This document shows, in pieces, positions 61,102 to 61,652 of a stretch of 64,000 nucleotides of DNA. Source of the stretch: a virus; IMG/VR virus record IMGVR_UViG_3300003465_000003, positions 1-64,000 of that record; one strand, 5' to 3'. Both the position numbers and the translations under genes were made by a program. Position 1 is the stretch's first letter, and the number at the start of each line of letters is the position of its first letter. The notes under the pieces were generated by a model. It did not search any database, was not told the origin of the DNA, and worked only from the letters and a program-made list of their open reading frames with translations.

Positions 61102-61187
61102 TGGTACTGAGGGCGGGACTCGAACCCGCATGGACCTTAGCCCGACGGTTTTTGAAACCGTTGTGTAAGCCATTCCGCCACCTCAGT
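61102..61187 (-). tRNA. trnL: tRNA-Leu(CAA)
   Basis: ACTGAGG/CCTCAGT acceptor stem, ACGGT-TTCAAAA-ACCGT anticodon arm, long variable arm, GGTTCGAGTCC T-arm, A73 and encoded CCA. Confidence 0.95.
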
Positions 61188-61197
61188 GTTTTTACAC

Positions 61198-61226
61198 TTG
61201 ACTTTTGTGCGTAAAAATGATATAAT
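61198..61226 (+). promoter_or_regulatory. sigma70 promoter of the antisense HNH gene
   Basis: TTGACT-17 nt-TATAAT with extended TG; ATG 9 nt downstream, no RBS. Confidence 0.8.
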
Positions 61227-61235
61227 GCAATCATT

Positions 61236-61625
61236 ATGAAAATATATGGCCCCTATAAAGATTCAACTGGCAAACGAAATATTGTTATTCGTTACTATCC
61301 AGATGGTAAAAGGAAAACTATGTCCAATGCTAGACATTTGATGGAGCTGCATTTGGGCCGAACTTTAGGACTAAACGAGACGGTGGACCATATAAATGGC
61401 GACCCACTAGACGACAGAATAGACAATTTGCAGGTAATGACATTACAAGATAATATCCGCAAGTCTGCAAAGCCTGCAGAAATTTACTCATTTTACTGTT
61501 CTATGTGTGGGCAGCAAGCAGTTAAACCTATGTGTCAAGTTAAACACAATTGGAAACAGGGGAAGGCCGGCCCTTTTTGCGGCAAGAAATGCGCTCGTAA
61601 GTTCCAGATATTGGGTGGTTCCTAG
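61236..61625 (+). mobile_element. free-standing HNH homing endonuclease, antisense to the operon
   Basis: R..ME.HLGR.L...E.VDHINGD..DDRIDNLQ......N; C-terminal CxxC...CxxxC. Confidence 0.9.
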
Positions 61626-61652
61626 CTGTGTCTGCCGTTCCACCACTTCCCG
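61621..61652 (-). pseudogene. 5'-half remnant of a tRNA-Leu-type gene
   Basis: CGGGAAGTGGTGGAACGGCAGACACAGC aligns with the 5' half of the intact tRNA. Confidence 0.55.

Follow-up and report, generated by a model that had tools for sequence, protein, structure and literature searches.

A probable tRNA-Leu-targeted HNH homing endonuclease between a tRNA-Leu remnant and an intact tRNA-Leu(CAA) gene in an uncultured phage

In the genome of an uncultured phage, a small HNH endonuclease gene separates the 5' remnant, or stub, of one tRNA-Leu gene from an intact tRNA-Leu(CAA) gene, and the encoded protein is probably a free-standing homing endonuclease that has tRNA-Leu genes as its target. The genome is a 99,793-bp IMG/VR virus record rated complete; its first 64 kb, the whole stretch of DNA that was analysed, is referred to here as the window. 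Genes run leftward from ~27.5 to 64 kb of the window, and the HNH gene is antisense to those that surround it. The original prediction had described a tRNA remnant, an antisense HNH gene with its promoter and an intact tRNA-Leu(CAA), and every one of these elements is found where it had been placed (Table 1). Homing endonucleases usually spare the gene that they enter, either because they reside in a self-splicing intron or an intein, or because they occupy an intergenic position. The present locus and its relatives point to another way, in which the nuclease destroys a tRNA-Leu gene and an intact tRNA-Leu remains beside it.

Table 1. Features of the tRNA-Leu locus and of two sister cassettes in the same genome. 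Positions are those of the window, except where the complete record (G000) is named.
Feature	Position	Strand	Evidence
Intact tRNA-Leu(CAA), 86 nt	61102..61187	-	ARAGORN; Rfam RF00005, 49.1 bits, E 3.5e-9
Sigma-70-type promoter, TTGACT-17 nt-TGaTATAAT	61198..61226	+	Promoter scan: 11/12 matches + TG
HNH_3 endonuclease gene, 129 aa	61236..61625	+	Pfam PF13392, phrog_14913
Stub of a putatively destroyed tRNA-Leu gene, 25-27 nt	61626..61652	-	Exact 22-mer in tRNA-Leu genes
137-nt stretch from the upstream gene (61790-62065) to the stub	61653..61789	-	ORF 61540-61785 reads through
RNA ligase gene, replacement start	51305..52270	-	Pfam PF09414
Promoter of the sister cassette, TTGACA-18 nt-TGgTATAAT	52261-52290	+	Sequence, promoter scans
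Sister HNH gene, another family	52299-52808	+	phrog_10822, E 2.9e-44
Orphaned first 8 RNA-ligase codons, MNSWHSPQ	52813..52836	-	Identical to P0005 N-terminus
Third antisense HNH cassette	G000 92876-93470 (L150 577-1171)	antisense to target	phrog_374

The tRNA-Leu(CAA), which is the sole tRNA found in the window by ARAGORN and Rfam, is a working leucine tRNA that remains beside the scar. It possesses a long variable arm, A73 and an encoded CCA, and its acceptor strands (ACTGAGG/CCTCAGT) form a perfect 7-bp stem. The HNH promoter is situated 10 nt from the tRNA 5' end on one side and 9 nt (gcaatcatt) from the HNH start codon on the other. No Shine-Dalgarno sequence or other ribosome-binding site (RBS) precedes the ATG at 61236, and since the promoter ends only 9 nt from this ATG, the HNH mRNA would be leaderless or nearly so. 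That this ATG is the true start follows from the relatives of the protein, all of which begin MK[IV]YGPY. The 129-aa product matches PF13392 over residues 33-73 with 37 bits, against a cut-off of 24.8, and phrog_14913 with an E-value of 1e-16, and it combines an N-terminal His-Me finger with a C-terminal four-Cys motif. All of the clade-conserved residues, taken from columns whose conservation reaches at least 90% among 35 clade sequences, are retained (D51, H52, N64, L65, C88, C91, C115 and C119); they comprise the catalytic D-H and the downstream N of the finger as well as the Cys ligands. A sequence search of solved structures with the HNH protein returned chance zinc-finger matches only and no close relative. 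As compared with flanks of 0.51 GC, the HNH ORF has 0.37-0.41, and its GC skew is opposite, as would be expected for a cassette of foreign DNA on the other strand. The possibility that the HNH gene is encoded inside a tRNA-Leu group I intron was also considered; it fails, as no Intron_gpI match was obtained in 60900-62200 at E <= 10, and the insert consists of promoter and ORF alone.

On the far side of the nuclease gene, the stub directly abuts the HNH stop codon, to which base 61625 already belongs. The stub comprises the acceptor 5' strand, the D arm and nt 26-27, and reads like nt 1-27 of a tRNA-Leu. Exact copies of its 22-nt core (61649..61628) occur in 4 IMG/VR and 88 bacterial contigs; within the loci fetched, 84 of 85 occurrences fall inside tRNA-Leu genes called by ARAGORN, and in 80 of these 84 genes the core starts at tRNA nt 4. 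Judged by this agreement in sequence, the stub is a genuine 5' part of a tRNA-Leu gene, far beyond what chance would produce. The 84 genes carry the anticodons UAG (41), CAG (29), CAA (9), GAG (4) and UAA (1). Because the same 22-mer is common to five different anticodons, the anticodon of the stub cannot be named, and an assignment as UAG-type, based on the four viral matches, was dropped. The first base of the stub is C, whereas the tRNA-Leu genes that contain the 22-mer begin with G, and the outer boundary of the stub may therefore lie at nt 2-4. Neither ARAGORN, including its relaxed mode, nor Rfam called a tRNA across the stub, truncated calls included. A 3' stub, sought as a complementary 3' strand followed by NCCA, was not found within 1.6 kb downstream, and the stub region displayed no internal repeats and no similarity to the RNA ligase cassette described below.

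An ORF on the - strand (61540-61785) runs through the 137-nt stretch that separates the stub from the upstream gene, continues through the stub and then reads antisense to the HNH gene. The tRNA-like stretch might accordingly be coding sequence of a small (81-aa) Cys-rich protein, a reading under which the remnant described in the original prediction would lose its meaning. The ORF does start 4 nt past the upstream stop codon and has CxxC motifs within its first 44 residues, but it has no homologue, is itself absent from a collection of 5.8 billion proteins and has no Pfam match, while in its second half it overlaps the HNH gene in antisense and the stretch at issue is an exact tRNA-Leu 5' sequence. 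A promoter scan found no - strand promoter for the 61653..61789 stretch. There is thus no evidence that the ORF would be a gene, and the Cys-rich protein is a highly improbable source of the tRNA-like sequence.

Relatives of the nuclease were sought in IMG/VR with HNH peptide patterns only, which yielded 43 loci. Loci whose HNH ORF reaches 100 aa or more form, together with the window, 24 lineages at 90% identity. Of the 23 other lineages, 22 have their HNH gene linked to tRNA-Leu, and in 19 of the 23 an intact tRNA-Leu was called by ARAGORN on the HNH strand at a distance of no more than 150 nt. The anticodon of these neighbouring genes is mostly UAA, and they are placed just upstream or just downstream of the HNH gene. 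In a further lineage (L011), a tRNA-Leu(UAA)-like gene was read by eye. Two lineages connect the clade with introns: in L036 (1460-2200) the HNH gene has a tRNA-Leu 5' stub on one side and, on the other, a tRNA-Leu(UAA) with a group I intron (RF00028, 58.9 bits), and in L037 (1430-2190) it lies inside the group I intron of a tRNA-Leu(UAA), where the intron match of 35.2 bits (E 2.8e-6) is below the gathering score and the exons were read by eye. The cultured phages PVP-SE1 and KP13-16 likewise carry a member of the same clade just upstream of tRNA-Leu(UAA). The sole lineage without a tRNA-Leu is L035. The contig of this lineage, which is classed as viral, carries a bacterial class A RNase P RNA (2912-3250, 253.8 bits) ~1 kb downstream of the HNH gene.

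Orphan tRNA-Leu 5' halves were found upstream of the cassette in 11 of the 23 lineages; for comparison, shuffled loci gave 5 matches in 342 kb at a looser threshold. In five lineages, a complementary 3' acceptor strand with ACCA follows or overlaps the HNH stop codon, such that both halves of one tRNA-Leu flank the cassette. What lies within the resident tRNA-Leu gene of these five lineages is a unit of promoter, tRNA-Leu and HNH gene. The stubs of the clade break at about nt 26-44, in the anticodon arm, and in the window the break falls near nt 27. Stub, HNH gene and intact gene form a recurrent triplet, as had been anticipated, with 22 of 23 lineages at tRNA-Leu and 11 of them bearing orphan 5' halves. 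The members of the clade are small HNH enzymes of about 130 aa, the target of which may be a conserved 20-30-bp tRNA gene sequence. The literature searches turned up no account of an HNH clade that is specific to tRNA-Leu and accompanied by split tRNAs.

This association bears upon a reading of the window locus as coincidence, in which a tandem tRNA-Leu gene decayed by deletion and a non-targeting HNH gene landed in the gap later. Phage tRNA arrays do turn over rapidly, and intergenic gaps commonly hold HNH genes. Against this stand the association with tRNA-Leu in all but one of the 23 lineages, the orphan halves with the same break region in 11, the matched 3' strands in five and the member inside a tRNA-Leu intron, as well as the stub of the window, which ends exactly at the HNH stop codon. 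Coincidence is considered quite improbable, if less so than the Cys-rich ORF.

Phylogenetically, the clade stands apart (99/99 support) from the proteins of PA11, Bas91 and a Vibrio phage, and the HNH protein of the window is sister to that of L010 (94/95 support). In L010 the HNH gene is located between tRNA-Leu(UAG) and tRNA-Leu(CAA), both of them intact, an order that corresponds to the stub, HNH gene and tRNA-Leu(CAA) of the window. Derivation of the window locus by inversion of an L010-like unit was rejected, as the 48 nt between HNH start and tRNA contain no reverse-complement tRNA 3' part. Among the outgroup sequences, the HNH gene of Vibrio phage 1.026.O (L148, NC_049430; 395-920) seems, by eye, to have a 14-nt tRNA 5' stub on one side and, on the other, a tRNA 3' part with an acceptor strand that complements this stub.

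The split-tRNA-Leu cassettes of the clade (L006-L008, L028-L033, L042 and L044) share with the window the HNH clade, the target family and the break region, and in them, too, the 5' stub is orphaned and the nuclease has an intact tRNA-Leu beside it. Their parts follow the order 5' half, promoter, tRNA, RBS, HNH gene and 3' half, all on one strand. In the window, by contrast, the HNH gene is inverted, has its own promoter and lacks an RBS, the tRNA is divergent from the HNH gene, and no 3' half is left. The HNH gene lies on the tRNA strand in all 23 other lineages and on the opposite strand in the window alone, which is also the only lineage that has an HNH promoter of its own and no RBS, and which is likewise without a 3' stub. 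The window cassette is, in its arrangement, an apparent antisense and leaderless variant of the HNH plus tRNA-Leu cassette. The antisense architecture that had been put forward as shared between cassettes thus holds for three cassettes of this genome, discussed below, but is not a habit of the clade.

Although the origin of the stub in a tRNA-Leu gene is clear, its relationship to the intact tRNA-Leu(CAA) differs from that first envisaged. The stub and the 5' part of the intact tRNA are alike at 19 of 28 positions, as had been noted. A replacement of the 5' part had been proposed, in which tRNA-Leu(CAA) would be a chimera of a 5' part supplied by the cassette and a resident 3' part, with the stub as the old 5' end of the same gene. 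In support of this proposal, the two 5' parts are homologous, and the geometry is that of the two protein-gene cassettes of this genome, in which a 5' patch is well supported: in each cassette, the remnant ends right at the HNH stop codon, with the -35 box beside the start of the restored gene. The pairing of the acceptor strands argues otherwise. The stub acceptor strand CGGGAAG pairs with the 3' strand of the intact tRNA, CCTCAGT, at only 3 of 7 positions, whereas the intact gene's own strands pair at 7 of 7; when nt 4-7 alone are counted, A6 of the stub still faces C67. As the stub is unable to pair with the present 3' strand, the whole tRNA is non-cognate to it. Decay of the stub is excluded as the cause of this mismatch, since its nt 4-25 are identical to those of 84 real tRNA-Leu genes. 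Furthermore, the relatives have whole tRNAs between both halves of the broken gene. A swap of the 5' part at this locus is therefore unlikely. Both ends of the tRNA appear to be foreign to the stub, which would mean either substitution of the whole gene or the presence of a neighbouring gene; tRNA-Leu(CAA) would be either cargo of the cassette or the next gene of a small tRNA-Leu array.

The reading preferred here, that of a tRNA-Leu-targeted homing endonuclease, would entail the following course of events. An HNH_3 gene of the tRNA-Leu-specialised clade would have entered, as a copy, a tRNA-Leu gene already resident in the phage, at the usual break region of the clade, where the anticodon arm begins (about nt 27), and only the first 25-27 nt of the invaded gene would have survived. 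The intact, non-cognate tRNA-Leu(CAA) would be a spare brought by the nuclease or the next tRNA of an array; by either origin, the phage would keep a leucine tRNA. The host RNA polymerase would fire the extended -10 promoter, and transcription, predicted to begin at or close to the HNH ATG, would yield a leaderless mRNA directed against the prevailing leftward transcription. The HNH protein would then nick or cut susceptible tRNA-Leu genes of co-infecting relatives that are free of the cassette, and repair of the break by recombination would give the cut genome a copy of the cassette along with its flanks. The flanking tRNA-Leu(CAA) would be a variant that escapes cutting. The entry site in tRNA-Leu is that of the ancient tRNA-Leu group I intron, and cassettes of this kind would account for isolated tRNA stubs as well as for the way in which phage tRNA sets turn over.

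Several known systems are comparable in part. The tRNA-Leu(UAA) group I intron has the same invasion site, the anticodon arm of tRNA-Leu. Unlike intron-encoded endonucleases, the nuclease of the window has neither an intron nor rescue by splicing, and an adjacent intact tRNA-Leu takes the place of the broken gene. The tRNA region of T5 contains genes for HNH endonucleases, according to a 2004 study as cited in PMC2330249. Like that of the window, these belong to the HNH family and are free-standing, and they lie within a tRNA gene cluster. In GenBank, a distant relative from phage PA11 is annotated as similar to T5 TflI; in a tblastn search at E <= 1e-3, no T5 record was present among the best 60 of 108 records. 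In T4, SegB takes the T-arm of tRNA genes as its recognition sequence, and its homing carries the neighbouring tRNA genes along (PMC2330249); SegB likewise brings about amplification of a tRNA locus (PMC13096335). The segB genes of T4 and T6 resemble the HNH gene of the window as free-standing nuclease genes among phage tRNA genes. However, SegB is a GIY-YIG enzyme, and it addresses the T-arm of many tRNAs where the HNH clade would address one isoacceptor family. Additionally, segB is placed between intact tRNA genes and on their strand, and a split tRNA, a promoter of its own and a leaderless start are not described for it.

The SegB precedent also allows for a domesticated nuclease, retained not for its own spread but because the breaks that it makes in tRNA genes lead the phage tRNA locus to rearrange or amplify; homing would still be compatible with such a role. 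SegB-dependent amplification of a tRNA-segB unit, reported for T6 SegB versus Septu (PMC13096335), lends this some plausibility. At the present locus, however, there is one intact tRNA-Leu and there are no repeat units, and the cassette destroyed a tRNA gene instead of multiplying one, so that domestication has a low probability here, comparable to that of the 5' swap.

The same genome contains two further HNH genes that are arranged in a similar manner. The sister HNH gene of the window lies antisense inside the start of an RNA ligase gene, with 8 nt (gggacatt) between its promoter and ATG. The two antisense HNH proteins of the window indeed belong to different families (phrog_14913 and phrog_10822), and promoter scan and sequence agree that both genes have extended -10 promoters, 8-9 nt to a cattATG and no RBS, all as originally predicted. 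The sister cassette has severed the first eight codons, MNSWHSPQ, from the RNA ligase gene; these are still preceded by AGGAAA as an RBS. The ligase gene restarts with GGGAGG, 6 nt, GTG and codons for STTFC, after which SPQ follows in different codons. Its new start thus reads (V/M)STTFC-SPQ and overlaps the -35 box of the sister HNH gene, and the stored ligase product (P0004) starts VSTTFCSPQSIFNLG. By comparison, all 40 of the 40 closest ligase homologues start M..W[HKRS]SPQSIFNLG (start motif M..W[HKRS]SPQSIFNLGHRAV), and the closest of them, P0005, starts with MNSWHSPQ, the very residues encoded by the orphaned codons. There is strong support, from these comparisons, for the RNA ligase cassette as the bearer of a recoded 5' patch. 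The proposed replacement of 5' ends is consequently upheld at the RNA ligase, where the stranded codons equal the start of P0005, and abandoned at tRNA-Leu, where acceptor pairing is 3/7.

The third HNH gene (phrog_374) lies beyond the window, at 92.9-93.4 kb of the genome, and has the same promoter and leaderless design. Its target is a Cys-motif protein, of which MKCSNCDKE is stranded; the new start reads ..VCSKCQQK, and the TGTCAA of this start is the -35 box of the HNH gene. The idea of a recurring design is borne out by this third repetition of the plan. Across the whole of the 99.8-kb genome, there are three sites at which a promoter of no more than one mismatch, with the TG extension, is followed 8-9 nt downstream by a cattATG, and these three are the promoters of the three HNH genes, with no others. 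A fourth TG-extended site, at 88364-88392 (+), has no obvious ATG after it.

Three unrelated HNH genes on one plan might represent a general "cut-and-patch" design of homing endonucleases, a generalization that is put forward tentatively and at slightly less than even odds. Under such a design, each HNH gene would be antisense to the gene that it invaded, and would be expressed from its own extended -10 promoter as a leaderless mRNA, with the promoter end of the cassette carrying a recoded substitute for that part of the target which is cut off. For the RNA ligase and the Cys-motif protein, the substitute would consist of a new RBS, a start codon and about eight codons. For tRNA-Leu, it would be a whole tRNA gene, since the old 3' strand would have been unable to pair with a patched 5' part. 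If this were true, endonucleases without introns could settle in the 5' ends of useful genes and leave these genes functional, and the three cassettes together would constitute a testable, natural "cut-and-rescue" design.

Neither an HNH-free close relative nor a syntenic relative of the window locus was found in the IMG/VR, JGI and cultured-phage searches. Among cultured phages, DNA and protein searches that included the neighbouring genes returned nothing that resembles the region. Exact 22-mers of the intact tRNA-Leu(CAA) matched no other contig of IMG/VR or the JGI metagenomes, and a neighbouring 171-aa protein, used alone and as an alignment, gave no matches in either collection. The sole relatives of a neighbouring COOH-NH2 ligase are at 35-39% identity and without tRNAs, and the RNA-ligase relatives in IMG/VR are at most 58% identical and non-syntenic.

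Other features of the genome were recorded alongside the locus. Two - strand genes of the window, at 60563-61078 and 63171-63584, encode proteins with a common LPGCC motif, and the first of these proteins has two homologues only among 5.8 billion proteins. Beyond the window, at 96347-96422 (+) of the complete record, ARAGORN called a tRNA with the anticodon UUA, which would read the stop codon UAA; it is close to tRNA-Met and tRNA-Gly genes. Finally, a tRNA-like RNA at 32018-32240 (-) possesses a 7-bp acceptor-type stem (CTCGCTG/CAGCGAG) and an insert of ~160 nt. It has no Rfam match, its D-arm resembles that of tRNA-Leu, and a YrlA-type RNA is a lead as to its identity.
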